NCBI GenBank assembly: GCA_964501575.1
Contig: CAZCTP010000003.1
Location: 10,384-74,383, forward strand
Reading direction: 5' to 3'
Origin: an uncultured Thermodesulfobacteriota bacterium
GTDB lineage: Bacteria > Desulfobacterota > CAZCTP01
DNA: 64,000 nucleotides
Positions within the stretch are counted from its first letter, which is position 1, and each line of letters starts with the position of its first letter. Under the pieces are notes generated by a model. It had not been told where the DNA came from. It worked only from the letters and a program-made list of their open reading frames with translations, and ran no database searches. Below are positions 1,237 through 63,512 of the stretch, in pieces. A program made the position numbers and the translations under genes.

Positions 1237-1249
1237 AGAATTTCCTAAA

Positions 1250-29517: not shown

Positions 29518-29533
29518 TGGCATGATAATTGCA
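29518..29533 (+). promoter_or_regulatory. Sigma-54 (-24/-12) promoter candidate TGGCAT-N5-TTGCA
   Basis: TGGCATgataaTTGCA: GG at 29519-29520 and GC at 29531-29532 with canonical 10-nt spacing. Located 200 bp downstream of a sigma-54 activator gene and about 17 nt upstream of the MoaD-like start. Confidence 0.5.
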
Positions 29534-29549
29534 TAATTATATTTTATAT

Positions 29550-32413: not shown

Positions 32414-32414
32414 G

Positions 32415-33086: not shown

Positions 33087-33098
33087 GGAGGTTTTGAT

Positions 33099-33962: not shown

Positions 33963-33973
33963 GGAGGGTAATT

Positions 33974-42035: not shown

Positions 42036-42050
42036 TAAGAAGGATAGAAA

Positions 42051-45370: not shown

Positions 45371-45459
45371 GGGAAGTCAATTAAGAATTATGAATTAGGA
45401 ATTATGAATTATGAGTTATTATTAAGCAGGAAGTAAAAAATATAAAGAAGGAGGTTTAT

Positions 45460-46716
45460 ATGAAAAAATCAAAATATTTCGTTATTCCTTTTATAATTTT
45501 ATCCTTTATTTTTCTTCTTAATACGAGAAGGGGCTTTGCGGATGTTAAGCCAGGGGATGTTATAGGTCCAAATAACTGGGAGAAAGTTAAAGACCTATTT
45601 TTACCATGGATGTTAGGGCAGATAAAAAAAGGCTGGACAATAAAGATAAGAAAGACAGAGCCTATTCTCCCCACATTTTCAAAGGGATACTTAGAGGCAA
45701 CCCGGAAGTATGCAGGGCAGGCAAAGATAGGGCTCAATGATGGGTTGCTTAACTATAAAGGTGGCCTTCCATTTCCGAAGATAGACCCCGATGACCCTCA
45801 AGCTGGAATAAAGATTATGTATAACTTCTACTGGAGATGGACAGGAGATGATAAGGTTCTCGCTGTTGATAAAACCGGAAAGAGAATAGTACCCTGGAGG
45901 AGATGGGTTATTGATAGGCACGGAAATGAGATAACTGCAGATACATATGGATATTTTTTGAAAGCGAGTGCAAGAACAGATATACCTCCAATATCTGCTT
46001 TTAAAGGAAAGGAGCATATAGAGAGTTATAGTATGTGGATAAATGTATGGCCAAGGGATTCATCGGGAACGGTTGTCTTTTATTACAGATATTATGATCC
46101 TAAAAAATGGGATGACCAGTGGATATTTATACCGAGTATAAGAAGAGTAAGAAGATGGCCAACATCTCAGAGATGTTCAACAAAAGCTCCAACAGACTAT
46201 ATATGGGATGATAACTGGGGATGGGATTCAAAGGTAAGCCTTTTTAAATATAAACTTCTTGGTGAAAAGAAGATGTTAACCATATTTCATGGAAAGCATA
46301 TTCCATATAAGAAGAAGAAAGGTTCTCCATGGTTGCTGGATGAAGAGTTTGAAGTAAGGGACTGTTATGTTGTTGAGATAACTGCAAAGGATCCAAACTA
46401 CTGCTATAGAAGACAGGTATACTATGTAGACAAAGAGAGTTTTCATGGAGTTGCAAAGGAGGTGTATGACAGGAAAAATGAATACTGGAAAGAGATGTTA
46501 ATGTTTGGAACCAATTATGAATATCCTGATGGAAGGAAATTCTGGGGGATTTTAGGATCTATATTTGTAAATGTTCAGACAGAACATATAAATATAAACT
46601 GCCCTTCTGAATCTGGGGCTACAATATATTATAATATAGGACTTACTCCAAAGTTCTTTACCCTATCTCAGATGCAGCAATTTCAGAGAGGGATGGGTTA
46701 TGTGAAGATTAAGTGA
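45460..46716 (+). CDS. Secreted protein, DUF1329-like (partner of DUF1302-like protein)
   Basis: 418 aa; signal peptide MKKSKYFVIPFIILSFIFLLNTRRGFADV; paralog at 61160..62233. Confidence 0.45.
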   Translation: MKKSKYFVIPFIILSFIFLLNTRRGFADVKPGDVIGPNNWEKVKDLFLPWMLGQIKKGWTIKIRKTEPILPTFSKGYLEATRKYAGQAKIGLNDGLLNYKGGLPFPKIDPDDPQAGIKIMYNFYWRWTGDDKVLAVDKTGKRIVPWRRWVIDRHGNEITADTYGYFLKASARTDIPPISAFKGKEHIESYSMWINVWPRDSSGTVVFYYRYYDPKKWDDQWIFIPSIRRVRRWPTSQRCSTKAPTDYIWDDNWGWDSKVSLFKYKLLGEKKMLTIFHGKHIPYKKKKGSPWLLDEEFEVRDCYVVEITAKDPNYCYRRQVYYVDKESFHGVAKEVYDRKNEYWKEMLMFGTNYEYPDGRKFWGILGSIFVNVQTEHININCPSESGATIYYNIGLTPKFFTLSQMQQFQRGMGYVKIK

Positions 46717-46742: not shown

Positions 46743-47525
46743 GTGAGGCTCAAGGATAGGGTAGCAATAGTAACAGGTGGCGGGACTGGTATTGGTAAAG
46801 CTATTGCTCTTGGCTTTGCAAGGGAGGGAGCAGATGTTGTAATTGCCCAGAGGAGGATGGAACTGGCAGAAAAAACAGCAGAGGAGATAAAAGTTATAGG
46901 CAGAAGAGCAATTGCTATTAAGACTGACATCTCTATAATTAGAGATGTCAATAACTTGGTTGATAGGACTATAGAGAATTTTGGTAAGATAGACATCCTC
47001 GTAAACAATGCATCTCTATTTCCTGGGGGTTCATTTTTAGAAATATCAGAAGAGGAACTGGATAGAGTGTTTTCAGTAAATCTTAAGGGGACATTTCTTT
47101 TAACCCAGAGAGTCGCTAAGGAGATGACCAGTAGAAGGAAGGGGAAGATAATAAATATATCTTCGGGCCGTTCCATTGTTGGGATACCCGGGCTTACCCA
47201 TTATACTGTTACAAAAGGAGGGATTAATGCATTTACGAGGGGACTGGCTGCAGAACTCGGTCCCTATGGAATAAATGTAAATGCTATTGTTTGTGGGTTT
47301 GTACCTGATACGGACGGGGTTAATGCTCTGTTTTCCTCTCTGGGTGAAGGGCTCTCCAGAAAGATCCTTGAAACTCAGATATTACAAACAGCCTTGAAAA
47401 GGTTCGGAAAGCCAGATGATTTTGTGGGTATTGCTGTCTATTTAGCAAGCGATGAAAGTAATTTTATAACGGCAGAGTGTATAACCGTGGATGGAGGCTT
47501 AGCTTATACTCGGATGAGATGGTAG
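46743..47525 (+). CDS. Short-chain dehydrogenase/reductase (FabG-like)
   Basis: 260 aa; TGGGTGIGKAIA Rossmann motif, NNAS, catalytic YTVTK (YxxxK). Confidence 0.85.
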   Translation: MRLKDRVAIVTGGGTGIGKAIALGFAREGADVVIAQRRMELAEKTAEEIKVIGRRAIAIKTDISIIRDVNNLVDRTIENFGKIDILVNNASLFPGGSFLEISEEELDRVFSVNLKGTFLLTQRVAKEMTSRRKGKIINISSGRSIVGIPGLTHYTVTKGGINAFTRGLAAELGPYGINVNAIVCGFVPDTDGVNALFSSLGEGLSRKILETQILQTALKRFGKPDDFVGIAVYLASDESNFITAECITVDGGLAYTRMRW

Positions 47526-47609
47526 ATATAAGGAATAAATGGAAGGGTTTTTTTGTTTGTAGGAAAGAGTATTAACTTAACTCTTAAACCTTTAATATAA
47601 GGAGGTAAA

Positions 47610-47998
47610 ATGGCAAGAGAAGCAGTAATAAAGGAAATAATAGCTCCAAGGGAGGTTCAGGGTGAGCCTTCAACTGAAAGATCAAGACTTGTAAGGGAGA
47701 GATATCTAAAGGCAGAGCTTGAAGTAGATCCTGAAAGGGCGGATCTCTATACAAAATCATGTAAGGAAACATAGGGAGAGCCTCTTGAAATAAGGAGAGG
47801 TAAGGCATTCAAATATATTATAGGTGGCATATACAGTTCAATGTAGTTGATACAAAGATGCTGAGGGATGCACAGAGGAATCCTGATAAATACAGGGGTC
47901 TTATTGTAAGGGTTGCAGGATTCAGTGCCTACTGGGTTGAGCTTTCTAAAGCAGTGCAGGATGAAGTTATAGCAAGAACTGAGTATGAGACATGCTAA
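47610..47998 (+). pseudogene. Glycyl radical enzyme remnant: GRE1-type N-terminus (about 70 aa) fused to C-terminal glycyl-radical motif segment, with an in-frame stop and about 700 codons deleted
   Basis: Begins with the same SD + ATGGCAAGAGAAGCAGTA as GRE1 (MAREAVIKEIIAPREVQGEPSTERSRLVRERYLKAE...), TAG at 47772-47774, then at about 47840 jumps to sequence about 90% identical to the last about 160 nt of GRE1 ([55 protein letters not shown]), out of frame. Confidence 0.75.
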
Positions 47999-48053
47999 AG
48001 AGGCAATAGGTAAGAGGTGATAGGTAAGAAATTATGAGATGAGGAAATAAAGA

Positions 48054-50345
48054 ATGAAAAGATACTCTGTGATTGGTAAAAGTTTGCCTATGGTGGATAG
48101 TATACCAAAGGTTACCGGGGAGGCTAAATATTCTATCGATATATTTTTACCAGGGATGCTACATGGGAAGATTCTAAGGAGTCCCTGTCCCCACGCAAGA
48201 ATTCTTAATATAGATGTCAGTGAGGCTAATAAACTTTCTGGGGTGAAGGCTATAATAACCGGTAGAGAAACCCTGGGAATAAAACGTAGCTTCTTTTCTA
48301 ACCCACCCCAGTATGATGATGAGTTTCCATTAGCTATAGATAGGGTCAGATATATTGGTGATCCATTGGCTGCAGTGGCTGCAGTAAATGAATATATAGC
48401 TGAAGAGGCATTAGAGCTTATTAAAGTAGAATATGAGGTATTACCTGCTTTCTTTTCTCCTGAGGAGGCTATGGAAGAGGGGGCTCCAATGATTCATGAG
48501 CATGTTAAGAATAATATAGCCCACCAACTCCATCTTGATTTTGGTGATATAGATAATGGTTTTAGTCAATCTGATTATATCCGTGAGGATAGATTCATTT
48601 CCAATCCCCTTCATCAGGGTTTTCTTGAACCTCATATCTCTGTAGCATCCTATGATTCTATGGGTGAATTGACTATCTGGACCTCTACTCAAATACCATT
48701 TTCCCTTAGAAGTGAATTATCTAAAACACTGGGAGTGAAAGAAGGGATGATAAGGGTAATTAAACCCTATGTGGGTGGGGCTCATTGTAGCAAATTAGAG
48801 TTACTTGCCCACCATTTCTGTTCGGCTCTCCTTTCAAAGAAGACAGGGAAGCCAGTAAAGATAGAGTTGACAAGGGAAGAAGTTTTTCAAATCAATAGAG
48901 GATCCCATCCTGTTACTATTGATCTAAAAACAGGGGTTAAGAAGGATGGAACTCTGATGGCTCAATATGCTAAGCTTATCGCTGATGCTGGAGCATATTT
49001 AAGCGCTGGATTGCTTCTAAATATCCTTTCAGGCCTTTTTATCTCCCTGCCTTATAAAATAGATAACTTTCGCTATGATGGATACATTGTATATACAAAT
49101 AACCCTGTCTGTGCAACTCAAAGAGCAATGGGATTGATTCAGATGCGCTTTGCAATTGATTCTCAACTGGATATAATTGCCAGGAACTTAGGAATAGACA
49201 TTAAAGATTTAATGATCAAGAATGCTGTTACCAGTGGGTATACTACTATAACTAAAAATAAGATATCAAGCTGTGGTCTTATAGAATGTATACAAAAAAC
49301 TGAAGAAAGTTCTTACTGGAGGGAAAGGCATAGTAAATTATTAAATAATAATAGAGGACTGGGAATAGGATGCGGATTCTGTACCTCAGGGGTAAAGGGG
49401 ACCAAGGTAACAGGGGATACCTGGGCTAAGTTAAAGATAGATTCAGATGGCATAGTTACTCTATTTACAGGGGCTTCAGATCTCGGCCAGGGAAGCAATA
49501 CTATTTTATCCCAGATAGTCGCTGAGGAACTGGGTATAGATTTAAAAAATATAAAAATAATCTCTGCAGACACAAAGATTACTCCAACAACTCCTGGAAG
49601 CTTTGGAAGCAGGGTTACCTTCCAGGTAGGAAATGCTGTAAAGCTGGCTGCTGCCGATGCAAAAAGGATTCTTCTAAGAACCGCTGCTAAAAAATTAAAG
49701 GTAAAATATGAATTCTTAGATATCAAAGATAATCGTATCTTTGTTAAGAATTTTCCAGATAGAGCCATATCTTTTTTAGATGCTGTTCGGGTATCTCTCG
49801 AATACCAACAGAGAAGAGATTCTATAATAGGCGAAGGATATTATACCCCTCCTGGTGAAATGCCGGATCCAGACACCTATGAGGGGAATATCGCTTCAGC
49901 CTTTAGCTTTGGGACAACAATAGCTGAAGTGGAGGCTGATCCTGAAACAGGAAGAGTTAATGTATTAAAAATAACTCATTCCCATGACTGCGGTTTTCCG
50001 ATAAATCCTATGGCAGTTGAAGGTCAGATTGAAGGTCAGGTAGCTTTTGGATTGGGACAGGCTTTATATGAAGAGCGTATTTTAGAAAATGGATTAATGG
50101 TCAATCCTTCTTTCTTGGGATATAAGATCCCTATAGCTTCAGAAATGCCGAGTGTAAATTCTATATTAATAGAAACCCATGATCCTAACGGGCCTTTTGG
50201 AGCTAAAGAATGCGGTGAGGGACCTCAAACTTCTGTAGTTCCAGCTATAGCCAATGCTATCTATAATGCAATCGGTATAAGGATTAAAGATTTACCCATA
50301 ACCCCTGAAAAGATATTGAAGGGATTGGAAGAAAAAAGCCTGTGA
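48054..50345 (+). CDS. Xanthine dehydrogenase/aldehyde oxidase-family molybdopterin-binding large subunit (CoxL/HcrA-like), no adjacent FeS or FAD subunit genes
   Basis: 763 aa; N-terminal a/b-hammerhead domain (SVIGKSLPMVDSIPKVTGEAKYSID...), MoCo-binding domains. Confidence 0.8.
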   Translation: MKRYSVIGKSLPMVDSIPKVTGEAKYSIDIFLPGMLHGKILRSPCPHARILNIDVSEANKLSGVKAIITGRETLGIKRSFFSNPPQYDDEFPLAIDRVRYIGDPLAAVAAVNEYIAEEALELIKVEYEVLPAFFSPEEAMEEGAPMIHEHVKNNIAHQLHLDFGDIDNGFSQSDYIREDRFISNPLHQGFLEPHISVASYDSMGELTIWTSTQIPFSLRSELSKTLGVKEGMIRVIKPYVGGAHCSKLELLAHHFCSALLSKKTGKPVKIELTREEVFQINRGSHPVTIDLKTGVKKDGTLMAQYAKLIADAGAYLSAGLLLNILSGLFISLPYKIDNFRYDGYIVYTNNPVCATQRAMGLIQMRFAIDSQLDIIARNLGIDIKDLMIKNAVTSGYTTITKNKISSCGLIECIQKTEESSYWRERHSKLLNNNRGLGIGCGFCTSGVKGTKVTGDTWAKLKIDSDGIVTLFTGASDLGQGSNTILSQIVAEELGIDLKNIKIISADTKITPTTPGSFGSRVTFQVGNAVKLAAADAKRILLRTAAKKLKVKYEFLDIKDNRIFVKNFPDRAISFLDAVRVSLEYQQRRDSIIGEGYYTPPGEMPDPDTYEGNIASAFSFGTTIAEVEADPETGRVNVLKITHSHDCGFPINPMAVEGQIEGQVAFGLGQALYEERILENGLMVNPSFLGYKIPIASEMPSVNSILIETHDPNGPFGAKECGEGPQTSVVPAIANAIYNAIGIRIKDLPITPEKILKGLEEKSL

Positions 50346-50375: not shown

Positions 50376-51842
50376 ATGGCAAGAGATATGTTTGATGAGG
50401 AGTATGATGTAGTTATAATCGGTGCAGGTATGGGAGGACTTACCTGTGGAGCAGCTCTTGCTAAAAAAGGAAAGAGAGTAAAGATATTTGAACAGCACAT
50501 TCTTCCAGGAGGATATGCCTCTTCCTTTGTTAGAAAGGGCTTTAAATTTGATGTCGCTATTCATTATGTAATCGGTTTGGGTAATGGGGGACAGGTATAT
50601 AAAATATTATCAGAAATTGGGCTTAGTGACGGATTAGATTCCATTAAATTTGATAATCTTTACAGATGCTTTTTCCCGGGAGAATCTTTTATTGTCCCCA
50701 GTAATTTGGAAGATTATTTAAATTTTCTCTCTCAAAGATTTCCAGAGGAAAAGATAGGAATAAAAACCCTTTTTGGTACAATGGGACTCATCTATGAAGA
50801 TAGTAAGAACCTTCCATCACTGACCTCTTTATTAACCCGATATAAAGATAAGACGCAAAAGGAATTATTAGATGAGTTTATAAAGGATGGTAAGCTTAAG
50901 AGTATAGTTTCTTCACTATTTTATGGGGGCTTGCCACCATCTAAGATATCAGCTATTCAGAGATCCTGCTCAATAATGGGAGCCTTTTCAAATGGGGCAT
51001 TTTATCCAGTAGGAGGTTCACAAGCATTAGTCAATATCTTGGTAAATGGATTAAAAAGAGCTGGAGGAGAATTAGAATTGGGTAGATTAGTGAATAGAAT
51101 TATTGTAAAGAATGGAAGGGCTATTGGAATTGAAACATCAGATGGTAAGAGAATAAAAGCTAATTGGATTGTATCTAATTCAGATATTATGGAAACCTTT
51201 TTTAAGTTAATCGGGGGAAAAGAGTTAGAAGGGATAAATCCTGCATTTCTAAAAGGCTTAAGGGAAATGCAGCCATCTTTATCCTCTTTTGATGTATACC
51301 TTGGAGTGGACTTGGATATAAAATCCATTGGTATCACTGACCATGAGATTATAGTGCATGAAAGCTGGAATATAGAGGAGGAATTTAAAGAATTATTAGA
51401 GGATGGTTTCTCGGGGGTTCCCTATTCTATAACAATACCAACACTTTCTGATCCTTCACTTGCTCCTGTGAATCATCATATAGTAATTATCTTTACACCA
51501 GCGCCTTATCATTTAAAAGGAGGGGATTGGAAGGCTGATAAAGAGAGGATTACGAATGAAATGATATTAAAGGCAGAGTCTGTTATACCTGGATTATCCA
51601 AGCATATAGTAGTAAAAGACTCCGCTACCCCTTTGACAAAGGAAAGGTATACATTAAATTTTAGGGGGTCTATTGGAGGTTGGGCTAATTATCCAAACAT
51701 AATATTTAATAAGCCATTACCCAAGACCCCGGTTGAGAATCTTTATCTTACCGGTCATTGGACACTTCCTGGAGGTGGAATTTCAGGGGTAATCTCTTCT
51801 GGATGGGCAGTTGCTAATATGATAGGGGAAAATAGCTTTTAG
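50376..51842 (+). CDS. FAD-dependent oxidoreductase, phytoene-desaturase (CrtI/COG1233) family
   Basis: 488 aa; N-terminal DVVIIGAGMGGLTCGAALAKKGKRVKIFEQHILPGGYA dinucleotide-binding motif characteristic of the CrtI-like amine-oxidase fold. Confidence 0.7.
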   Translation: MARDMFDEEYDVVIIGAGMGGLTCGAALAKKGKRVKIFEQHILPGGYASSFVRKGFKFDVAIHYVIGLGNGGQVYKILSEIGLSDGLDSIKFDNLYRCFFPGESFIVPSNLEDYLNFLSQRFPEEKIGIKTLFGTMGLIYEDSKNLPSLTSLLTRYKDKTQKELLDEFIKDGKLKSIVSSLFYGGLPPSKISAIQRSCSIMGAFSNGAFYPVGGSQALVNILVNGLKRAGGELELGRLVNRIIVKNGRAIGIETSDGKRIKANWIVSNSDIMETFFKLIGGKELEGINPAFLKGLREMQPSLSSFDVYLGVDLDIKSIGITDHEIIVHESWNIEEEFKELLEDGFSGVPYSITIPTLSDPSLAPVNHHIVIIFTPAPYHLKGGDWKADKERITNEMILKAESVIPGLSKHIVVKDSATPLTKERYTLNFRGSIGGWANYPNIIFNKPLPKTPVENLYLTGHWTLPGGGISGVISSGWAVANMIGENSF

Positions 51843-51883
51843 TTAATTTTTTAAAATATTATGAATTAATAAGGGGGTATAAA

Positions 51884-54385
51884 ATGGCAAGAGAATCAGC
51901 AATAAGGGAACTAATAACCGATAGGGAAATAAGGAGAGAGCCTACTACAGAGAGAACAAAGATGCTCAGAAAAAGATTTCTTCAGGAAAAGCTTACAGTA
52001 TGCACTGAGAGGGCATTTTTATTTACAGAGGCTTTTAAAAAAGGCGATGGTCTGCCAATAATGGTAAGAAGAGCAGAAGCATTCAAATATTACTTGAGCA
52101 ATATGAAGCCCATTATCAGAGATGGAGAGCTTATTGTAGGAAATTATACAAGATTTGTAAGGGGCGCTGCACTCTATCCTGATGGGGGTGTAAAGTGGAT
52201 AAAGGACGTATTAAAAGGGATTCTTTCTGAAGCCGAACAGAAATATGTAGAGCTCCCGGATGGGGGTGGAATTGTAAGGGACTTTGTCACATATAGGCTT
52301 GCACTGAGTAAGAAGGAAGAGGAAAAGTTATGGGAGGTGTTAGACTACTGGGATGGTAAAAGTTTTGATTGTATGATTAGAAAATATTTTGAAAAGACCG
52401 ATAGTTATGCCCTTCTAAAAGAATTAGAGTCTACATTAACTATTTCTCCATTTATTACAACCAATCTCTGTGAAGGTAGGATGGTTCTTGATTATGAAAA
52501 GGTTTTAAATAAGGGATTTAATGGAATAATAGAAGAGATAAATGAGAAACTAAGAGAGCTCAGAAGGATAGGGCATAGAGTGAGGCTTATGGATGATATG
52601 GATAAGATAATCTTCTACGAATCTGCTATATCATCCTGTGAAGGGGTAATAGCACTATCAGAGAATTATGCCTCCGAGGCAGAGAGATTGGCAAGAAACG
52701 AAAAGAATAGAAATAGAAAAGATGAACTAATGAGAATAGCAGGGGCATGCAGATGGGTTCCTGCAAATCCAGCGAGGAATTTATATGAGGCATTACAGTC
52801 ATGGTATTTCACTCATATGGCTGGATTCTTAGAGTCTGGTGGAGCAGCTTATTCTCCTGCAAGGTTTGATCAATATATGTATCCCTTCTATAAAAAGGAT
52901 ATAGAAGAGAATAAAATAACAAGGAGTGAGGCTTTAGAGCTATTAGAATGCTTAAGGTTAAAAATCGCTCAATATCAGTATGTAACCACTGTTATGAATG
53001 AAGGGCTTTTTTCAGGGACTACAAATCAGAATCTTGTGTTAGGGGGATGCACAAAGGATGGAAAACCTGCTGATAATGATTTGTCAACCCTCATATTAGA
53101 ATCAGCAATAACAATGCAGACAAATCAGCCAACTCTATCTATCAGATATAATGATAAACTTAATGAGGATTTCCTGCTTAAGGCTATAGAATTGGTAAAG
53201 ACAGGTATTGGGATGCCTGCATGGTTTAATGATGAGGTTGGCATTGCTCATGCATTATCCCATACCGGTGCTTCCTTAGAAGATGCAAGGGATTGGGCAC
53301 TGGGGGGTTGTGTTGAGCAGGTTGTATCCCATAGAAGGGGAGGATTCCAATTATCATTCTATACAAACCTCGGGAAGACACTGGAATTAGCACTGAATAA
53401 TGGAATTGATCCAGTAAGCAGGAAAAGGGTTGGTATTGAGACAGGTGATCCTCAGAATATGAGCTATGATGAGCTTGTTGATGCCTGGAAAAAACAGACA
53501 GCATATGTTTATCATCTTGCCCAGGACTACTGGAATATGGCAATGGGCTTGCACCCTCATATCCTTCCACTACCCTATGCATCTGTTTTAACAGATGATT
53601 GTATTGAAAGGGGTAAGAGTTTAGATGAAGGTGGAGCAAGGTACTCAGATGGACCAACCCATTTAATTACAGGTCTTATAGATGTAGCTAATTCCTTTGC
53701 AGCTATAAAGAAGTGTGTATTTGAAGATAAGGTCTTTACAATGGGGGAGTTAATTAATGCATTAAATAGAGACTTTAAAGGGTATGAGGATATTCAAAGG
53801 AAGCTTATTGATGCTTCAAAGTTTGGAAATGATGATGATTATGTGGATGATATAGCCCAAGATCTTTATGGATATCTTGCAGAGGAATCGCTCTCCCATA
53901 AGAATTGGTTTGGTCATCCAATCCCTCCTGCACCGGCTACTGTAACCACACATCCAATATTTGGTAAGGCATGTGGTGCTCTGCCAGAAGGAAGAAAGAA
54001 GGGGATTGCCCTATGTGATGGTTCTGTTTCGGCACTTCCCGGGACGGATAAAAATGGTCCAACAGCTCTTGTTAATTCTGCATCCAAGGTAGATGCTATT
54101 CCATATTCATGTCATCTATTAAATATTAAGTTTCATCCAACAGCTCTGAAGGATATAGATGGATCAAGAAAACTTTTGGCATTGATTAAGACCTATATGG
54201 ATAGGGGTGGATATCATGTTCAATTTAATGTGGTTGATACAAAGATGTTAAGGGATGCTCAGAGGAGACCGGAAGATTATCAGGATTTATGGGTAAGGGT
54301 AGCCGGATTCAGTATGAGGTGGGTTGAGCTATCAAGGGCTGTTCAGGATGAGATAATCAGAAGAACAGAGTATGAAGAATGCTAA
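51884..54385 (+). CDS. Glycyl radical enzyme GRE2 (PFL superfamily), paralog of GRE1
   Basis: 833 aa; C-terminal RVAGFSMRWVELS glycyl radical motif (Gly codon 54304-54306); catalytic loop LGGCVEQ (Cys codon 53309-53311). No activase or small subunit genes adjacent. Confidence 0.9.
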   Translation: MARESAIRELITDREIRREPTTERTKMLRKRFLQEKLTVCTERAFLFTEAFKKGDGLPIMVRRAEAFKYYLSNMKPIIRDGELIVGNYTRFVRGAALYPDGGVKWIKDVLKGILSEAEQKYVELPDGGGIVRDFVTYRLALSKKEEEKLWEVLDYWDGKSFDCMIRKYFEKTDSYALLKELESTLTISPFITTNLCEGRMVLDYEKVLNKGFNGIIEEINEKLRELRRIGHRVRLMDDMDKIIFYESAISSCEGVIALSENYASEAERLARNEKNRNRKDELMRIAGACRWVPANPARNLYEALQSWYFTHMAGFLESGGAAYSPARFDQYMYPFYKKDIEENKITRSEALELLECLRLKIAQYQYVTTVMNEGLFSGTTNQNLVLGGCTKDGKPADNDLSTLILESAITMQTNQPTLSIRYNDKLNEDFLLKAIELVKTGIGMPAWFNDEVGIAHALSHTGASLEDARDWALGGCVEQVVSHRRGGFQLSFYTNLGKTLELALNNGIDPVSRKRVGIETGDPQNMSYDELVDAWKKQTAYVYHLAQDYWNMAMGLHPHILPLPYASVLTDDCIERGKSLDEGGARYSDGPTHLITGLIDVANSFAAIKKCVFEDKVFTMGELINALNRDFKGYEDIQRKLIDASKFGNDDDYVDDIAQDLYGYLAEESLSHKNWFGHPIPPAPATVTTHPIFGKACGALPEGRKKGIALCDGSVSALPGTDKNGPTALVNSASKVDAIPYSCHLLNIKFHPTALKDIDGSRKLLALIKTYMDRGGYHVQFNVVDTKMLRDAQRRPEDYQDLWVRVAGFSMRWVELSRAVQDEIIRRTEYEEC

Positions 54386-54475
54386 TAAGGTGAAGGATAA
54401 AAACCGATAAAGAATAAAAAAGATGATGTGACAGGTATATAAAAAAATATTATTTTAATTGAAGGGGAATAAAAA

Positions 54476-56029
54476 ATGGAATATGATATTATTGTGATAG
54501 GAAGCGGACATAATGGTTTAACAACCGCATGTTATCTTGCAAAATGGGGACTTAAGGTTATTGTTTTGGAAAAAAGGAATGTCTTCGGTGGAGGATGTAT
54601 TACTGAAGAGGTAACGCTCCCTGGTTTTAAGCATGATATTCATTCAGAAAATCATCTGTGGGTGAGAATATCCCCTACAATGGATGAACTTCAACTTGAA
54701 AAATATGGACTGGAATATTATATACCGGAAAAACTTATTGGTTCAGGATTTCCTGATGGAAGTTCCATAGTTCAAAATATAGATATAGATAAAACACTTG
54801 AGAGTATATCAAAGATAAATGAGGAAGATGCAGATTCATATAAAAGGTTTTATGAGAGATATTTAGAGGTTTCAAAGATAATATTTGATTCCTTCTTTTT
54901 AACAACCCCTCCTGGAACAGGATTTATGCAGGCAATGGAGGGAAGTAGAGAAGGTGCAGAAATATTGAGATATATGCTTCTTTCTCCAAAAGATGTATTA
55001 GACGAAAATTTTAAAGATGACAGGGTTAAAACATGGCTATATGCTTATGCTGAACAGCTTGGAAATGCTCCTGATGAACCAGGGAGCGGTTTCTCTATAT
55101 TTCTTCTTCCCTCATTTGTTCAACAATATGGTCTGGGGAAGCCGATTGGAGGCTCTGGTATGCTTACAGAAGCATTTCTAAAATGTTTTAAATCTTTAGG
55201 AGGAGAGGTAAGAGGGAATTCTGAGGTTAGAAGGATAATAATTGAAGGGGGGGGAGCAAGCGGCGTTGAACTTATTAGTGGAGAGAAGATAAGGGCTAAA
55301 AAGGCTATCGTGTCGATGATGTCATTTCCCTACCTGATTAAGGCTACTGGAGAAGAAAATCTTGGCTATGATTTTGTAAAGAGAGCAAATAACTTTAGAT
55401 ATGGATATGGAATATTTATGGTTCATGCTGCCCTTGATGATCAATTAAATTTTATTTCTCCTGAGCTTGATGATGCAACAACAATAACCCTTTATGAATC
55501 AATGGATAACTGCCTTAAATGTTTTCATCAAATATCCATGGGAGAGATACCATGGGATAATATACTTGTATTTGTGAGTAACTATTCTGTAAAGCTATGT
55601 GAAAAGACAAAAAAGGTACCACATGGAAAAGCTACATTATATCTTGCATCTCCTGAATGTATTCCAAATACCAAAAATTTAAGAAATGGAACATGGGATT
55701 ATAATAAGGTAAGGTTTGGAGAAGCACTTATAAATAAACTCTCTATGTATGCACCGAATCTCAAAGATATTCTTTTAAAGGTATATTTTGATTCACCAGC
55801 AGACATCGAGAGGAGAAATCCTACAATGGCATACGGAGATGCAGTCTTAGGGAGATCTACTTTAGAACAGTTCTTAATGAGACCATTTCCAGGATATACA
55901 GAATATAAAACATCCATATCTAATCTGTATATGACGGGGGGGCATACATGGCCATCCGGAGGTGTAACAACAGCCCCAGGATATAACTGTGCAAGAATTA
56001 TAAAAAGAGATCTTAAGATAGGAGGATAG
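54476..56029 (+). CDS. FAD-dependent oxidoreductase, phytoene-desaturase (CrtI/COG1233) family
   Basis: 517 aa; [45 protein letters not shown] dinucleotide-binding motif. Confidence 0.7.
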   Translation: MEYDIIVIGSGHNGLTTACYLAKWGLKVIVLEKRNVFGGGCITEEVTLPGFKHDIHSENHLWVRISPTMDELQLEKYGLEYYIPEKLIGSGFPDGSSIVQNIDIDKTLESISKINEEDADSYKRFYERYLEVSKIIFDSFFLTTPPGTGFMQAMEGSREGAEILRYMLLSPKDVLDENFKDDRVKTWLYAYAEQLGNAPDEPGSGFSIFLLPSFVQQYGLGKPIGGSGMLTEAFLKCFKSLGGEVRGNSEVRRIIIEGGGASGVELISGEKIRAKKAIVSMMSFPYLIKATGEENLGYDFVKRANNFRYGYGIFMVHAALDDQLNFISPELDDATTITLYESMDNCLKCFHQISMGEIPWDNILVFVSNYSVKLCEKTKKVPHGKATLYLASPECIPNTKNLRNGTWDYNKVRFGEALINKLSMYAPNLKDILLKVYFDSPADIERRNPTMAYGDAVLGRSTLEQFLMRPFPGYTEYKTSISNLYMTGGHTWPSGGVTTAPGYNCARIIKRDLKIGG

Positions 56030-56033
56030 GAAT

Positions 56034-57461
56034 ATGCCTTTCAATGATATAAGGGAGTTTATAGAAAGATTAAGAGAGACAGGAGATCTATTAGAGATTA
56101 ATAGAGAGGTCGACTGGAATCTTGAGGCAGGCGCTATAATGAGAAGGTGTAATGAAACAAATGAAAGGGCTCAACTTTTTAATAATATAAAGGGATATCC
56201 AGAAGGATACAGGTTATTTGGGAGTCCATTAGCAAATTTAAGAAGAGTCGCTATAGCACTCGAGATGTCTCCAGAATCCTCTTATACAGAAATATTAGAT
56301 GAGTATATTAAGAGGCGCAATAATATTATAAAGCCTATAATTGTGAGTGATGGTCCATGTAAGGAGAATATATATAAGGGAGAAGAGGTCGATCTGTTTA
56401 AATTTCCTTCTCCTATGATTCATGCAGGGGACGGAGGGCGTTATATAGGAACATTGGATGTAGGGGTATGTAAAGATCCGGACTCTGACTGGATAAATTG
56501 GGGTACATATAGGTTAATGATCCATGATAGAGATTCCATAGGTATATTTCTTATTCCTGCTCAACATGTTGGGATGATATATTCAAAGTATAAATCAAGC
56601 AATAAACCTATGGAATATGTTGCATTTATGGGCTGTGAACCAATAACAAATCTTGTTGCAACGACGGGGATACCCTATGGAGTGAGTGAAGTGGATGTAA
56701 TAGGAGCTGTTAGAAGAGAACCTTTAAAGGTGGTTAAATGTGAGACTGTTGACCTCTTTGTCCCTGCAAGCGCAGAGATTGTTATTGAAGGGGAGATACT
56801 TCCTCATGTCAGAAAGGATGAAGGACCATTTGGAGAAGGGGCTGGTTACCAGGTTACTGGAAGGGTTCCGAGACCAGTATTTAAAGTAAAAGCCATTACA
56901 CATCGAAATGCTCCAATACTTCCTGTTTCATGCATAGGTGTTCCTGTAGATGACAGTCATGTAGCAAGTAATATAGGATTTATATCAGGTATAAAGATAG
57001 CATTAGTTGAAGCTGGTATTCCAATTACTGGAATATATATGCCCCCAGAATCCGGGCTTTCCCTGTGTATTGTTTCAACAAAGACTCCGACTCCAAATAT
57101 AGCGAGAAGGATTGCAAGTTGTGTATGGGGAGATAAAAATGGCCAATATCTGCCCAAAATAGTAGTAGTTGATGAAGATATTGATCCAACAAATATGGCT
57201 CAGGTCATCCATGCATTTGCTACCAAGTGTCATCCATCAAGAGGGATAATGATTATGGATAATGTATTTAATTCTCCAATATTAGGATACTTAAGTAAGG
57301 AGGAGAGGACTTTAAGTAGTGGAAGCAATGTTTTGTTTGATTGTACATGGCCTAAAAGCTGGAAGACAGAAGATATTCCACCAAAATCCTCCTTTGACAA
57401 TATATACCCAGATGAGGTTAGAGAGATGGTTATATCTAATTGGAAGGAATATGGATTTTAG
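56034..57461 (+). CDS. UbiD-family (prenylated-FMN-dependent) decarboxylase/carboxylase
   Basis: 475 aa; MPFNDIREFIERLRETGDLLEINREVDWNLEAGAIMRR is the conserved UbiD N-terminus; no ubiX in window. Confidence 0.85.
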   Translation: MPFNDIREFIERLRETGDLLEINREVDWNLEAGAIMRRCNETNERAQLFNNIKGYPEGYRLFGSPLANLRRVAIALEMSPESSYTEILDEYIKRRNNIIKPIIVSDGPCKENIYKGEEVDLFKFPSPMIHAGDGGRYIGTLDVGVCKDPDSDWINWGTYRLMIHDRDSIGIFLIPAQHVGMIYSKYKSSNKPMEYVAFMGCEPITNLVATTGIPYGVSEVDVIGAVRREPLKVVKCETVDLFVPASAEIVIEGEILPHVRKDEGPFGEGAGYQVTGRVPRPVFKVKAITHRNAPILPVSCIGVPVDDSHVASNIGFISGIKIALVEAGIPITGIYMPPESGLSLCIVSTKTPTPNIARRIASCVWGDKNGQYLPKIVVVDEDIDPTNMAQVIHAFATKCHPSRGIMIMDNVFNSPILGYLSKEERTLSSGSNVLFDCTWPKSWKTEDIPPKSSFDNIYPDEVREMVISNWKEYGF

Positions 57462-57555
57462 AGTTATTGCAATTGCTTATAAATTTATGTACATAAATCA
57501 ATGAATTGTAAATATTTACTATAATTTATGTTAATATTATATAAGGAGGACGTAT

Positions 57556-57930
57556 ATGAAATATGTAACAATTGTAAATATTAATCCATCTCAGGCAGAA
57601 AGGCTTAGAGAGTCTATTCCAGCAGAGGCTTTTCTACATCTTGAAGAGGCTATTCACTCAGGAAGAACTCCCTCGGAGGAAGAGTTATTAAGTAAGGGGG
57701 TGGAAAAGGAATTCGCAGAGCTTTTAGTAGCTCATCTAAGCTATCTAAAAAGTTTAAATGATAGAGGTATCCTTGAGAGCGGAGGGCCATGCAAAGGATT
57801 TAATAAAGCTGTTAATATATTTGAGGCTGATTCAGAGGAAAAGGCGAGAGAATTTCAAGAGGGGGACCCGTTCTTTAAGTATGGGATGCTTTCAGATTAT
57901 GAGATCTTAGAGTGGAATAAAGTATTTTAG
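57556..57930 (+). CDS. Small YciI/Dabb-like protein (tentative)
   Basis: 124 aa; size and hydrophobic pattern with ...DRGILESGGP... resemble YciI-like ferredoxin-fold proteins common in aromatic catabolic clusters. Weak assignment. Confidence 0.35.
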   Translation: MKYVTIVNINPSQAERLRESIPAEAFLHLEEAIHSGRTPSEEELLSKGVEKEFAELLVAHLSYLKSLNDRGILESGGPCKGFNKAVNIFEADSEEKAREFQEGDPFFKYGMLSDYEILEWNKVF

Positions 57931-58100: not shown

Positions 58101-59727
<1,627 letters not shown>

Positions 59728-59731
<4 letters not shown>

Positions 59732-61149
59732 AAGGAAAGGTTTTATTAATTGTATTAATAGCTTTATTTATAGATAAAAGAGCTTTCTCCTTTAATATTG
59801 CTTCATTCAATCCCATAGGTAATAGCCTTAGTAAAATAAAGAAGAGTATACCAAATCTGGATATTAAAGGGTTTATTGAAAATGAAACCGATATAGATCT
59901 TCATGGACATAGATATAATACCCAGAAGATAGAGTGGCTTTCAGAGATTGATCTAAGATATAGGTTATCCAGTGATATGGAGATAGTGAACATCTATAAT
60001 TTTCTATATGATTCAATATTTGACTGGGAGGCAAAACATGTATTCTCTTCAGAAACAGAAAGGAAGTTAAGAGTATACAGGAATGGAAAGAGGATATTAA
60101 GAGAGTTATATCTTGACTGGGCACTTAATGACTGGAGATTTATTTTAGGAAAACAACAGGTTGTTTGGGGAAAGGTTGATGGAAGAAAGGTTCTTGATAT
60201 GATAAATCCAGAGGATTTTAGAGAGGGTCCATGGGATGCTGCAATGGATGATTGGAAGTATACAAGAATTCCGTTATGGATGGCAAATATATCATGGAGT
60301 GGAGAGATATATAACCTCCAATTTTTATGGATTCCTGACTTTGAGCCAAATCCCTTAATACCTGAGGACTGGATATGGGGATTTAAGAGAAGACCAGATC
60401 CATCGATTAGAACGGTAATTAGAGATATTATTAAACCCGATGAAGATAGGATTGAAAATCATGAATTCGCTCTAAAGTTAGAATTTGAGCAAAATGGATG
60501 GGATATATTCTTTGTTTACTTTTATGGATGGAGTTATAATCCTACTCTCTTTAGAAAGGATACTATAATATCCACTAATAAAGGAGATCCAATAACATTT
60601 GTTCTTGAACCAAGATATACCCGCTTGCACAGATTCGGCTTTGCCCTTGATAAAGCATTCTCCTTTTTAGGATATGATTGGGTTGGAAGAATAGAATCTG
60701 TTTACAAAAAGAATCTATATATAGCCACTGATAATGAACCACTGAATGAGGATGGTCAGACTCAAAGGGACAGGCTTTTAACATCGCTTGCTTTAGAGAC
60801 TATAATCTTTGTAGACTGGGATATTCTTCTCACTATTCTACCTGAATATACATTTGGAAGTATGGAGGGATTGAGATTTATGCCGATAAGAACACCTCTT
60901 AATCACTGGGAAAATTATTATTCTCTTACAATAACAAAGAGTTTTTATTATGACAGGGGTACTTTATCCCTTACAATGGCTTATGGTGACCATGGAGAGG
61001 AAAGGCTTAGAACTCGTATATTCTTTAGGCTTTCCGATTTTATAACATTGAGTGTCGGGATTCATTCCTTCTGGGGGAAGGATAGTACAGTTACAGGACA
61101 ATTCTCAAAGAATGACGAAGTAGAATTCGGGATAAAATATGAATTTTAA
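59728..61149 (+). CDS. Secreted/outer-membrane protein, DUF1302-like, second copy
   Basis: 473 aa; signal peptide MKGKVLLIVLIALFIDKRAFSF; C-terminal aromatic residue (…GIKYEF); paired with DUF1329-like gene as in the first module. Confidence 0.4.
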
Positions 61150-61159
61150 GGAGGAGAGT

Positions 61160-62233
61160 ATGATGAGAAAAATAATTTTTTTAATCCCCTTTATATTTTT
61201 CCAATCTTTATTATATGCAGGTCAATGGAAGAACCCAAGGGATATCATAGGGGATCCTATGATTGTCAGGCTACAACAGGGCAGGAAAGAGCTTACTTCA
61301 GAGGAAAAGGAAGAAATAAAGAGATATGGATATACAGGATTGGAGATAATGAGCTATGTGATGTGCAACAAGGACCCCGGAAAAGACAATGAGGGATTCT
61401 ATAAAAGTATATCTGTAGATTCATCAGGAAATATCCAGATCAGAGAGGTTATAAGAAGGAGAAAATATTATTATAAGGATTATAGGGCAAGGTTTACCTA
61501 TGATGGGATTAAGCCCGGGGATGTAGTTTACAAAAGAGCAGGTATGCAGTTATATCCCCCTCGTGATAGAGGAACCACATTTATAAGAATTGCCTATCTA
61601 AAATCAAAGGATAATTATAAGCCAGATACCCTTTTCGTAAGGTCTATATCTCTGAAGAGGATAAGGCAATATCCAACCCCTAACAATCAGGATAAATTTT
61701 ACAAAGAGGATATGACTCATGATGACTGGTATGCAAGAGAGGCGTGGCAGGAAAATCACAGGATTATAGGAGAGGATAATATAAGGGGTAAGGACTGCTT
61801 TGTTATAGAGAGCAAAAACTGGTATTATCCGAATTACTATCTCAGCAAGAGGGTAACCTGGGTTGAGAAGAAGAACTTTCTTGATCTACATGAAGAACAG
61901 TTTGATAGGAAGGGCAGGCTATTTAAAATAATGGACAAAGAGTGGGTCCAGGTTCCACCATGGAACTATTGGGTGAGAAAAAACTGGGATATTATAGATC
62001 TCAGCACAAAATCAAGAACCATTGAATATACCTATGATTGGATATTTGATCAGGGTTTTACAGAAAAGAAATTCTCTAAGGCGATGCTTAAGAATGAGAA
62101 GGTGTGGAGAGAACCTAAAAATCCGCCTCCATCCATTAGAAAACTTTCAGATCTACCTAATCCACCACAGGTAAGGTCAGAGTTCTGGAAGAGGATGGAT
62201 GTAGCACCAAATATTTTTGGGAGGGGGAAGTAA
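61160..62233 (+). CDS. Secreted protein, DUF1329-like, second copy
   Basis: Start ATG 61160 preceded by AGGAGG; signal peptide MMRKIIFLIPFIFFQSLLYAGQ; shares size, signal peptide and W/Y-rich composition with 45460..46716. Confidence 0.4.
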   Translation: MMRKIIFLIPFIFFQSLLYAGQWKNPRDIIGDPMIVRLQQGRKELTSEEKEEIKRYGYTGLEIMSYVMCNKDPGKDNEGFYKSISVDSSGNIQIREVIRRRKYYYKDYRARFTYDGIKPGDVVYKRAGMQLYPPRDRGTTFIRIAYLKSKDNYKPDTLFVRSISLKRIRQYPTPNNQDKFYKEDMTHDDWYAREAWQENHRIIGEDNIRGKDCFVIESKNWYYPNYYLSKRVTWVEKKNFLDLHEEQFDRKGRLFKIMDKEWVQVPPWNYWVRKNWDIIDLSTKSRTIEYTYDWIFDQGFTEKKFSKAMLKNEKVWREPKNPPPSIRKLSDLPNPPQVRSEFWKRMDVAPNIFGRGK

Positions 62234-62234
62234 T

Positions 62235-63512
62235 ATGGAGCTATTTGAAGCATTTAAAAGATTTTCGGATGTTGCAGAGCCTATAATTATAAAATCTGAT
62301 GTTGTAAGACTCGGGCTAAGATTCAGTGACAGAGCAAAGGAGTCCTTCAAAGAGAGGAAGGATATTCTATATAAAGGATTCTGGCTATTTTCCTATGATA
62401 AGGGAGAACCTGTTATGTATGGAGATAATATACCATTTCTTATAATCCTTGATGATGGAACAGAAGAGGGAACGACGATTCAGGTTAGAACATCTGAGGA
62501 TACCCCGTATATGGTTGATATAGTTGATGGAGAATATAAGCTATTCTGGAATGAAGAACCTATAGGAAGGGTCGGTTTTGATAAGCCCCCAAAGTTTTTT
62601 GAGAGGATGATAGATGGAATTCCTATGGCATCCCTGGTTCAGGGAGCAAGGGATACTCTATTTGTTACTGCTAATAAACATTGTGACTATTTCTCAATAA
62701 AGAAGGAGTGCCTGTTCTGTGATCTTACACCCCATGCCGCTGCCCAGAAAAAGAAGGGTGAGACAATGATATTAAGAAAAAAAGGGGATATGGTTGCTGA
62801 AGTCCTGGAAATTGGGCTTCATGAGTCGAGGTTCAGGCATCTATTTATAACCGGAGGGACATTCCTGAAGGAATATGAGGGTAAGAAGGAACTGGATTGG
62901 TATTGTGATTTCTTAGAATCCATAAGAAAAAGGCTAAAGGTATGGTATCCTGTAAATTTTCAGATAGGAGCCCTTGATGATGAGGGATGGAAGAGATTAA
63001 AGGATACAGGAATTACCAATATTGAACCAAATATTGAGGTATGGAATAGGAAGCTATTTGAAATAATATGTCCTGGTAAGGCTTCCCATGTCGGGTATGA
63101 TGAATGGATAAAAAGGACTATAAGGGCTGTTGATTTCTTTGGAGTCGGGAATGTTAACCCGAACTTTGTTTCAGGAGTTGAGATGGCAAAACCCTTTGGA
63201 TTTACCGATGTAGATGAGGCTGTTGAATCCACAGTTAATGGATTTGACTTCCTTATGAGTCATGGTGTTCTTCCAAGACAGGGGGACTTCTGGTGTATTG
63301 AGCAAAAATCAAAGCTTTCCCACTCTGAACCACCACCTTTAGAGTATTTTATAAAACTTGGAATAGGATATCTTGAGGTAAGAGAGAAGTATGGATTTAT
63401 GTCTCCAACTCTATCATTGTGTAGATATTGTCTCCCTCATGGGACAGAGTATGACTTTGAATACTGGCATGGTAATGGGCCATATTCAAAGAAAAATGAA
63501 AAAGGAGGGTAA
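62235..63512 (+). CDS. Uncharacterised Cys-rich protein X2 (paralog of X1 at 33974..35239)
   Basis: Start ATG 62235 preceded by GGGAGGGGG; about 60% identical to X1 by eye, with the same conserved blocks (YKGFWLFSYDKGEPVMYG, C-x8-C-x2-C in HCDYFSIKKECLFCD, ITGG, EPNIEVW, ICPGK, FWCIE). Confidence 0.5.
   Translation: MELFEAFKRFSDVAEPIIIKSDVVRLGLRFSDRAKESFKERKDILYKGFWLFSYDKGEPVMYGDNIPFLIILDDGTEEGTTIQVRTSEDTPYMVDIVDGEYKLFWNEEPIGRVGFDKPPKFFERMIDGIPMASLVQGARDTLFVTANKHCDYFSIKKECLFCDLTPHAAAQKKKGETMILRKKGDMVAEVLEIGLHESRFRHLFITGGTFLKEYEGKKELDWYCDFLESIRKRLKVWYPVNFQIGALDDEGWKRLKDTGITNIEPNIEVWNRKLFEIICPGKASHVGYDEWIKRTIRAVDFFGVGNVNPNFVSGVEMAKPFGFTDVDEAVESTVNGFDFLMSHGVLPRQGDFWCIEQKSKLSHSEPPPLEYFIKLGIGYLEVREKYGFMSPTLSLCRYCLPHGTEYDFEYWHGNGPYSKKNEKGG

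Follow-up and report, generated by a model that had tools for sequence, protein, structure and literature searches.

A putative one-strand catabolic island with glycyl radical enzymes, CtmAB-like flavoproteins and a UbiD homolog: possible steps of O2-independent side-chain removal

What might an anaerobic bacterium do with a glycyl radical enzyme (GRE), CrtI-superfamily flavoproteins and a UbiD-family (de)carboxylase dependent on prenylated flavin mononucleotide (prFMN), when their genes follow one another on the same strand? This question is raised by positions 50376-57930 of a 64-kb stretch (the window) of contig CAZCTP010000003.1 from an uncultured Thermodesulfobacteriota bacterium. Few enzyme strategies are available to anaerobes that attack unreactive C-H and C-C bonds, and one putative operon here unites three that need no O2, based on a glycyl radical, on a CtmAB-type flavin and on prFMN. 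We scanned the open reading frames (ORFs) of the window with Pfam and NCBIfam, covering all substantial non-overlapping ORFs of at least 100 aa except 99-503, and refer to flavoproteins 1, 2 and 3 as CrtI1, CrtO2 and CrtO3. The answer that we favour, if only tentatively, is that the island harbouring these genes may serve the O2-independent breakdown of a hydrophobic compound with an unsaturated or aromatic nucleus, whose side chain would be trimmed one carbon at a time. The sequence itself shows the enzyme classes, their intact catalytic motifs, an operon-like layout, a transporter of the type that handles hydrophobes, and sub-modules that are conserved in part.

A preliminary description of this DNA had placed three CrtI-family flavoproteins, a GRE (GRE2), a UbiD-like and a YciI-like gene within 50376-57930. 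The ORFs and their Pfam and NCBIfam matches, with domain E-values far beyond chance, bear this out for the last three genes; there are indeed three flavoproteins, but two lie inside this interval and the third, frameshifted, follows at 58119-59731. The genes inside the interval are spaced by 41, 90, 4 and 94 nt, with a further 188 nt to CrtO3, and the gap of 4 nt is that between CrtO2 and the UbiD gene on the same strand. With its shared strand and tight spacing, the run 50376-59731 looks operon-like and co-transcribed. Positions 1-27 kb of the window hold housekeeping genes, and from 27.3 kb to the end all genes are on the plus strand; 50376-57930 belongs to the distal half of a ~35-kb one-strand catabolic island (~27.3-63.5 kb), probably controlled by sigma-54. 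The nearest protein relatives of the host are in Thermodesulfobacteriota, Syntrophales and Desulfobacterium N47, and the host would be an uncultured, low-GC, outer-membrane-bearing anaerobe, a sediment-type bacterium. Two further assemblies (L001 and L002; L numbers denote our comparison loci) are 100% identical to the window at the DNA level.

The UbiD homolog passes the family model TIGR00148 (303.8 bits, cut-off 244.85) and does not reach the models of either of two specific functions. For phenylphosphate carboxylase alpha (TIGR02723), it scores 391 against 564, and no genes for the beta, gamma or delta partners lie within the window. For the housekeeping UbiD (NF008175), it scores 150 against 788; furthermore, its identity to the UbiD encoded with UbiA, UbiU, UbiV and UbiT in one operon (L097) is only 31%, and there are no ubi genes near it. 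It is not the housekeeping enzyme, and what would have refuted the earlier proposal, a housekeeping UbiD amid ubiquinone genes, is not what the window holds. Its closest solved relatives are HudA/PA0254 and Fdc1 (~290 bits). Alignments to 8crd and 4ip2 show that the equivalents of Fdc1 R173, E277 and E282 and of the metal and prFMN ligands N168, H191 and E233 (Fdc1 numbering) are all kept, and the protein retains the complete Fdc1-type catalytic set, comprising the E-R-E triad and the ligands of Mn, K and the prFMN phosphate. It is 55% identical to a paralog in N47 annotated as phenylphosphate carboxylase alpha-like and belongs to a large, often multicopy family in Syntrophales, Thermodesulfobacteriota and N47. 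L088 (1-19286) carries an array of at least 14 tandem UbiD-family genes, including a split one, with COXG-like and IspD-like genes after the array. Part of the same array, with six of the UbiD-family genes, is seen in L089 (919-10204), a contig of the metagenome sample that also yielded the window. Fdc1/HudA and the UbiD-like carboxylase clusters of the polycyclic aromatic hydrocarbon (PAH) degraders N47, NaphS2 and Desulfatiglans TRIP_1 have the three-domain UbiD fold in common with the window protein. Its relatives form tandem arrays and have succinate-dehydrogenase-like and PNPOx-like genes as neighbours, a setting also known from the naphthalene carboxylase cluster. Unlike in these clusters, the UbiD gene of the window is a single copy flanked by flavoproteins, and the window holds no gamma-like, MRP/ParA or other subunit genes, no CoA ligase and no ubiX.

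As to the flavoproteins, the earlier assignment to the CrtI/phytoene-desaturase family holds for the superfamily fold: all three match NAD_binding_8 and Amino_oxidase, and there are distant matches to the CrtI structures 4dgk and 4rep. It does not hold for the family proper, since none passes TIGR02734 (cut-off 238), for which CrtI1 scores 167 bits, CrtO2 86 and the 5' piece of CrtO3 (58119-59168) 53. CrtI1 is a separate CrtISO/CrtI-like protein with a motif of the classical CrtI type (GFKFDVAIH), and the other two, 35% identical to each other, are nearest to the CrtO ketolase model. Among COG1233 proteins are the delta-24 steroid desaturase (delta-24-SD) and CtmAB, a limonene dehydrogenase that needs no O2 to hydroxylate an allylic methyl group; both are heteromers with a flavin covalently bound at the His of the motif G-F-L/R-X-N/S-T/L-H-A (PMC4109377, PMC11061730). 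The motif of CrtO2, GFKHDIHS, matches this consensus at the covalent-flavin His, the G and the F and differs by conservative changes at four positions, and 43% of 111 CrtO2 homologs have His at the flavinylation position. In CrtO3 (GFKWDVFG), this His is absent. CrtO2 is 31% identical to the motif-bearing alpha-like protein of N47, and identities between the window proteins and the CtmAB-like pair of N47 range from 24 to 31%. By motif and by similarity to such motif-bearing proteins, two of the three flavoproteins, CrtO2 and CrtO3, probably belong to the CrtO/CtmAB/delta-24-desaturase branch, in which allylic C-H bonds are hydroxylated or desaturated independently of O2, and are no classical phytoene or carotenoid desaturases.

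CrtO-like genes form adjacent pairs in N47, L125, L094 and L183. In the window, CrtO2 and CrtO3 are not side by side, the UbiD and YciI genes lying between them, and CrtO3 is split into ORFs of 349 aa (58119-59168) and 163 aa (59240-59731), which correspond to the N- and C-terminal portions of uninterrupted homologs, with a change of frame near 59160 (between ...KTLH and IAPSIDY...). Since the identical split is found in L001 and L002, the frameshift is not a one-off assembly error.

Two known systems of this branch invite comparison. The monoterpene island of Castellaniella defragrans, with CtmAB, the alcohol and aldehyde dehydrogenases GeoA/GeoB and AmeABCD, has in common with the window a COG1233 flavoprotein with His at the covalent-flavin position, alcohol dehydrogenase and aldehyde-oxidising steps, a DUF1302/DUF1329/BNR/HAE3 transporter, and O2-independent chemistry on a hydrophobic substrate, which for the window is our prediction. 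Unlike the C. defragrans island, the window lacks the ctmE/ctmF ferredoxin system as well as genes for ring cleavage or a CoA ligase, its flavoprotein pair is separated with the second member frameshifted, it has GREs, a UbiD and a xanthine-oxidase-family Mo subunit in addition, and its host is probably a strict anaerobe. The delta-24-SD of Sterolibacterium denitrificans, an alpha4beta4 enzyme with covalent FMN on both subunits that acts beside an existing double bond of a lipophilic substrate, appears to share its branch and the N-terminal His motif with CrtO2. By contrast, the window holds no steroid genes, CrtO3 has no His, and the companion Mo enzymes of the delta-24-SD pathway are type II DMSO-reductase-family hydroxylases, families other than those of the window.

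GRE2 has a paralog in the island, GRE1, to which it is 54% identical. For both, the best curated model is that of indoleacetate decarboxylase (NF033718, cut-off 1100), which scores 870 bits for GRE1 and 750 for GRE2; neither reaches the cut-off, yet the next-best models give at most 653 and 577 bits, leaving indoleacetate decarboxylase ahead by 170-220 bits. GRE2 has a C476-V-E478 (C-x-E) motif and the glycine loop RVAG808. Its E-G-R199 is invariant in a 25-sequence alignment of the GRE2 clade and precedes the Cys by 277 residues, compared with 274 for Arg226 in OuIAD, a match of spacing and not of alignment, from which E-G-R199 is the probable equivalent of Arg226. The latter residue is essential in OuIAD (PMC13232127, PMC9248008). 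The GRE arylacetate decarboxylases (IAD, HPAD, PAD, AAD), the best curated family for GRE1 and GRE2, have the Gly and Cys loops and C-x-E in common with them. Unlike for IAD and HPAD, there is no HPAD small subunit at the window GREs and the His514 position is Leu by spacing; moreover, the window GREs stand in an environmental Gram-negative setting with hydrophobe transporters, as opposed to the gut Firmicutes and Actinobacteria of the arylacetate decarboxylases. They would represent an environmental sister clade of the skatole-forming GREs. At 39 positions that are conserved in the clade, some of which lie in the Cys and Gly loops, GRE2 has another residue, and it is therefore a diverged paralog.

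Other GRE functions fit less well. A fumarate-adding enzyme was rejected: no X-succinate-synthase model is among the NCBIfam matches of the GREs, the 90-nt gap 3' of GRE2, where a small subunit was looked for, holds no ORF, and benzylsuccinate synthase alpha (4pkc) gives GRE2 ~305 bits against 533 for the top structure. A canonical diol dehydratase was likewise rejected, as the catalytic His164 and Asp447 of glycerol dehydratase align to Arg199 and Leu in GRE2. Radical decarboxylation or elimination by GRE2 is thus more likely than the activation of a hydrocarbon that the preliminary description had in mind, and which we regard as unlikely given the nearest curated family and the C-x-E motif. 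A third GRE gene, between the short-chain dehydrogenase/reductase (SDR) gene and the Mo subunit gene, is a remnant whose 5' and 3' ends are 78% and 89% identical to GRE1 at the nucleotide level. We considered its 46-aa ORF at 47858-47998 (RVAGFSAYW) as a GrcA-like spare glycyl-radical protein and rejected this, the ORF being the 3' end of the deleted GRE1-like gene. Together with the frameshift in CrtO3 and the diverged active site of GRE2, this deleted copy suggests a locus that is evolutionarily fluid.

Do the parts of this locus travel together elsewhere? The N47 paralog of the UbiD homolog lies directly 3' of a pair of flavoproteins of 542 and 545 aa (motifs GFLHNTHS and GFVGNTHA), in a locus that also encodes a PAS/sigma-54 activator, an AmeABCD-type transporter cassette, an SDR, a tungsten aldehyde oxidoreductase and a third flavoprotein, and L107 and L125 likewise have this triad of two flavoproteins and UbiD. 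In L094, a flavoprotein pair is accompanied by an SDR and two FadL/TodX-type channels. L183 (1-12727) combines a CrtO-like pair and an SDR with hydantoinase A/B proteins resembling acetone and acetophenone carboxylases, a PsrA-like Mo enzyme, a PNPOx-like protein and two radical SAM proteins of the variant type; its core is like that of the window island, but the hydantoinase-type carboxylase replaces UbiD and there is no GRE. Two sphingomonad plasmids carry an SDR and a CrtO-like flavoprotein without UbiD, and a search of plasmids with CrtO2 matched only generically annotated oxidoreductases. The flavoproteins have an SDR as conserved partner and, in several loci, also an aldehyde oxidoreductase and some (de)carboxylase. 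The recurrent core is one or more flavoproteins plus an SDR, often with the Mo/radical SAM/PNPOx set, joined to different (de)carboxylases.

In 80 metagenomic loci with genes related to the UbiD homolog, we counted stand-alone Mo subunits in four loci, Ame cassettes in three and CrtO-like flavoproteins in two; a YciI-like gene is absent beside these UbiD genes. The relatives of the GREs (53-57% identity) have an SDR neighbour in five of seven contexts, the remnant in the window included, along with tungsten aldehyde oxidoreductases in three, ThDP-dependent decarboxylases and AmeABCD in two each and a PCMH/VAO-family flavoprotein in one (L086, where the GRE relative also stands with an Ame cassette). 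Sets of ThDP decarboxylase, aldehyde oxidoreductase and GRE would fit a sequence from arylpyruvate via arylacetaldehyde and arylacetate to methylarene. A scan with the GRE2-clade alignment, one genome per species, yielded mostly relatives of 34-40% identity, none with CrtI-like or UbiD neighbours among the matches listed, and is uninformative on synteny.

In L180 (5138-11435), SDR and Amidohydro_2 genes flank a GRE of the same clade. A UbiD-family protein of 562 aa comes next, and its Tat- or lipoprotein-like N-terminus (RREFLTIGAACVGAVTAGCG) would make it an unusual exported UbiD. L097 (4067-11584; also L098) encodes UbiD (447 aa), a CrtO/CtmAB-like flavoprotein (529 aa), UbiA, two UbiU/UbiV-like U32 proteins, a UbiT-like SCP2 protein and one more CrtO-like flavoprotein (527 aa; 38% identity with CrtO2), so that flavoproteins of the CrtO/CtmAB branch are apparently embedded in an O2-independent quinone pathway there. 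In L099, an Ame cassette, two UbiD genes (one product 60% identical to that of the window) and a succinate-dehydrogenase-like FeS/flavoprotein pair lie beside housekeeping genes. Homoserine dehydrogenase, phosphoglycerate mutase and 4HBT thioesterase genes are common to L099 (12666-15610) and the window (829-4799), which suggests a related organism as the source of L099.

From the intact enzymes of the window, we infer the reaction order R-CH2-COOH, R-CH3, alcohol, aldehyde, acid, R-H, chosen as the chemically simplest chain that uses every one of them. A GRE would decarboxylate an acid of the aryl- or allyl-acetate type to a methyl compound, and the CtmAB-like flavoprotein would then hydroxylate the benzylic or allylic methyl group with water. 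The SDR would oxidise the resulting alcohol and a Mo enzyme the aldehyde, giving an alpha,beta-unsaturated or aromatic acid, which UbiD would decarboxylate with release of CO2; working in the opposite direction, UbiD would add a carboxyl group to the nucleus. Electrons would exit via the upstream Mo/FeS/NrfD membrane complex. A lipophilic substrate, as suggested before, is likely because genes of an AmeABCD-type RND transporter flank the cluster. Whether all this amounts to a previously undescribed O2-independent route, in which a two-carbon side chain is erased as two CO2 and the pairing of CtmAB-like flavoprotein and UbiD is the conserved heart, is another matter, and this more ambitious claim we consider a long shot.

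Several points weigh against side-chain trimming. Every catalytic protein stays below its equivalog cut-off. The link between GRE and UbiD is weak: none of the 80 related UbiD loci holds a GRE, contrary to the functional clustering proposed earlier, and the sole other GRE-UbiD adjacency, in L180, involves a distant UbiD subfamily (28% identity). Flavoproteins, too, are present in only two of the 80. Against solved structures, GRE2 scores higher with CutC (533 bits) and glycerol dehydratase (529) than with HPAD or AAD (~420). The scanned ORFs of the window gave no match to the flavoprotein/UbiX family, so that ubiX is absent from them, as noted before, and the 64-kb window has neither 2Fe-2S or FAD subunit genes for the Mo-hydroxylase nor a CoA ligase gene. 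With a frameshifted flavoprotein and a deleted GRE copy, part of the locus may be decaying. Finally, limonene dehydrogenase reportedly requires an acceptor of high potential, which may be unsuitable for a strict anaerobe (PMC12583861).

How do other explanations fare? The preliminary description had a GRE activate a lipophilic, isoprenoid- or polyene-like hydrocarbon, whose chain CrtI-type enzymes would desaturate or saturate before UbiD (de)carboxylates it. CrtI-superfamily domains are present, hydrophobe transporters flank the cluster, the relatives CtmAB and delta-24-SD act on terpenes and isoprenoid sterol side chains, and limonene activation by a GRE is known. The known hydrocarbon-activating GREs, however, are X-succinate synthases, and GRE1 and GRE2 fit indoleacetate decarboxylase and carry C-x-E; together with the low score of 4pkc, the missing X-succinate-synthase matches, the ORF-free gap after GRE2 and a GRE that is not conserved beside relatives of UbiD or of the flavoproteins, this makes such a pathway unlikely. 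Alternatively, GRE1 and GRE2 could be 1,2-eliminases that convert a hydrophobic diol or hetero-substituted alcohol to a carbonyl for the SDR and a Mo/W aldehyde oxidoreductase, with flavoproteins and UbiD in a separate step or pathway. That C-x-E is typical of eliminases, that CutC and glycerol dehydratase are the top solved structures and that GRE relatives most often have SDRs and aldehyde oxidoreductases beside them would agree with this. Yet the replaced His164 and Asp447 equivalents and the curated models of HypD, CutC and HpsG, which score 170-340 bits below that of indoleacetate decarboxylase, leave us doubtful. The genes might also be neighbours without any meaning for a pathway, a mosaic of duplicated and partly decaying modules brought together by rearrangement, with GRE2, flavoproteins and UbiD that have unrelated substrates or are in part non-functional. 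The GRE remnant, the frameshifted CrtO3, a second, partial Ame set, the 39 departures of GRE2 and the variable contexts of each gene's relatives speak for it; the single strand, the tight spacing down to 4 nt between CrtO2 and UbiD, the sub-modules that recur elsewhere (flavoprotein pair with UbiD, flavoprotein with SDR, GRE with SDR) and the catalytic residues kept in the intact genes speak against it, and we give it little credence.

Two further ideas concern the flavoproteins and UbiD. In anaerobes, CrtO/CtmAB-like flavoproteins could be accessory partners of UbiD, for instance in an O2-independent oxidative maturation of the prenylated flavin. They adjoin UbiD proteins of two distant subfamilies (31% identity) in the window, N47, L107, L125 and L097, and the window has no ubiX; but flavoproteins occur in just two of the 80 related UbiD loci, they stand with an SDR and no UbiD in L094, L183 and the sphingomonad plasmids, and their characterised relatives are substrate-oxidising enzymes, which renders this idea very improbable. 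Public annotation, with names such as 'phytoene dehydrogenase-like', 'prolycopene isomerase' and '4-hydroxy-3-polyprenylbenzoate decarboxylase', points to biosynthesis instead, be it carotenoid desaturation or ketolation or the making of ubiquinone or menaquinone. As scores stay below the curated cut-offs for CrtI, CrtO, CrtISO and UbiD equivalogs, the window holds no crtB, crtE, crtY, ubiA or men genes, and the context is that of a regulated catabolic island with GREs, this is barely credible, and carotenoid biosynthesis and housekeeping ubiquinone decarboxylation were rejected. Altogether, stepwise side-chain removal remains the reading that we prefer, tentative as it is, and the other genes of the island (Table 1) can be viewed in its light.

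Table 1. Features of the island in window coordinates, with the matches that identify them
Feature	Positions	Strand	Evidence
Sigma-54-dependent activator with PAS sensor domain	27353..29329	+	Sigma54_activat 2.4e-68, PAS, HTH_8
Sigma-54 promoter-like site TGGCATGATAATTGC, head of island	29518..29532	+	1 mismatch to TGGCAC-N5-TTGC
MoaD-like protein, PhsA/PsrA-like molybdopterin oxidoreductase, 4Fe-4S subunit and NrfD	29529..33962	+	PhsA 249 bits; DsrO/ArrB-like; NrfD
Variant radical SAM protein	33959..35239	+	NF045502 218.9 bits, cut-off 125
PNPOx-like flavin-binding protein	35297..35710	+	PNPOx_N 2e-06; homolog in L183
GRE1, paralog of GRE2	35737..38208	+	PFL-like 7e-196
GRE-activating radical SAM enzyme, the only one in the window	38319..39245	+	TIGR02494 343.7 bits, cut-off 174
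AmeA/AmeC/AmeD/AmeB-type tetrapartite HAE3 RND transporter	40533..46716	+	DUF1302, BNR/YCF48, MMPL, DUF1329
SDR-family dehydrogenase	46743..47525	+	adh_short 2.7e-57
Remnant of third GRE gene, GRE1-like 5' and 3' ends	47591..48002	+	~2.1-kb internal deletion, in-frame stop
Stand-alone Mo-hydroxylase large subunit, 4-hydroxybenzoyl-CoA reductase alpha-like	48054..50345	+	TIGR03194 767 bits, cut-off 994
CrtI1, CrtI/CrtISO-like flavoprotein, 488 aa	50376-51842	+	Amino_oxidase 3.5e-17; TIGR02730 213 bits
GRE2, glycyl radical enzyme, 833 aa	51884-54385	+	PFL-like 3.7e-188; Gly_radical 3.9e-26
CrtO2, CrtO/CtmAB-like flavoprotein, 517 aa	54476-56029	+	NF045689 263 bits, full length
UbiD-family prFMN (de)carboxylase, Fdc1/HudA/PpcA-like, 475 aa	56034-57461	+	UbiD_N/UbiD/UbiD_C
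YciI-like small protein, 124 aa, ~50-aa N-terminal extension	57556-57930	+	YCII 41.8 bits, cut-off 24
CrtO3, CrtO/CtmAB-like flavoprotein, frameshifted near 59160	58119-59731	+	Pieces match full-length homologs
Second, partial Ame-like set: DUF1302-like outer-membrane and LolA/DUF1329-like periplasmic proteins	59728..62233	+	
Second variant radical SAM protein	62217..63512	+	NF045502 185 bits, cut-off 125

The activator at the head of the island, 40% identical to that of the CtmAB-like/UbiD locus in N47, is its probable regulator. In the gap 3' of the activator gene, the promoter-like site at 29518 reads TGGCAT-N5-TTGC; it is suggestive only, as three sigma-54-like sites in the window against 1.2 expected are not above chance, and it is the only one well placed. 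Scans of the window for sigma-70 promoters and terminators stayed at background level, and Rfam and tRNA scans of the window gave no match. A perfect 29-bp direct repeat in two copies (ACAATCTTTTTCATGTAAAGGATGAGAGA; 40043-40101), 5' of the Ame-like genes, may be a regulator binding site. The transporter genes themselves (40533-46716) comprise all four parts of the cassette, namely the DUF1302 outer-membrane protein, the DUF1329/LolA-like protein, the BNR/COG4447 protein and the HAE3 RND pump. AmeABCD is the HAE3 RND system of the C. defragrans monoterpene island, and growth on unfunctionalised monoterpenes requires it (PMC6394551).

For redox steps, the Mo/FeS/NrfD membrane complex is a possible quinone-linked electron outlet, and its PsrA-like catalytic subunit shares 46% identity with the L183 enzyme that adjoins the CrtO-like pair and SDR. 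The SDR of the window is 42-47% identical to SDRs beside GRE relatives (L086, L087, L180) and in the N47 locus (47%). For the Mo-hydroxylase large subunit, TIGR03194 is the best model and 1rm6_A in the PDB gives 574 bits; it is clearly related to the large subunit of HcrABC, unlike which it has no HcrB (beta, FAD/FeS) or HcrC (gamma, 2Fe-2S) genes in the window. Stand-alone HcrA-like copies also occur elsewhere beside related UbiD genes (L109, L128), with further homologs of the Mo subunit in L106 and L123.

The two variant radical SAM proteins (NF045502) are paralogs that bracket the island, and homologs of them lie beside CrtO-like flavoproteins in L183. A 186-aa protein with a Clp_N domain only (39242-39802), the start of which overlaps the end of the GRE activase by 4 nt, may be an accessory or chaperone of the GRE system. 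Ahead of the island (25243-27248), a radical SAM and helix-hairpin-helix protein precedes one that has a Cas6 endoribonuclease domain; the window holds neither a CRISPR array nor any other cas genes.

In summary, each component of this locus is of a known family, with no new fold or element found; the combination, and especially that of the CtmAB-like pair with UbiD, was not found described in the searchable literature. Should the modules be unrelated, the locus would be one more uncharacterised catabolic island. As it stands, with functional coupling only partly supported, it gives enzymologists who study how anaerobes metabolise hydrocarbons and aromatics a good lead, and the triad of flavoprotein pair and UbiD would offer candidates for the removal of methyl groups and side chains in sulfate-reducing or syntrophic hydrocarbon degraders.

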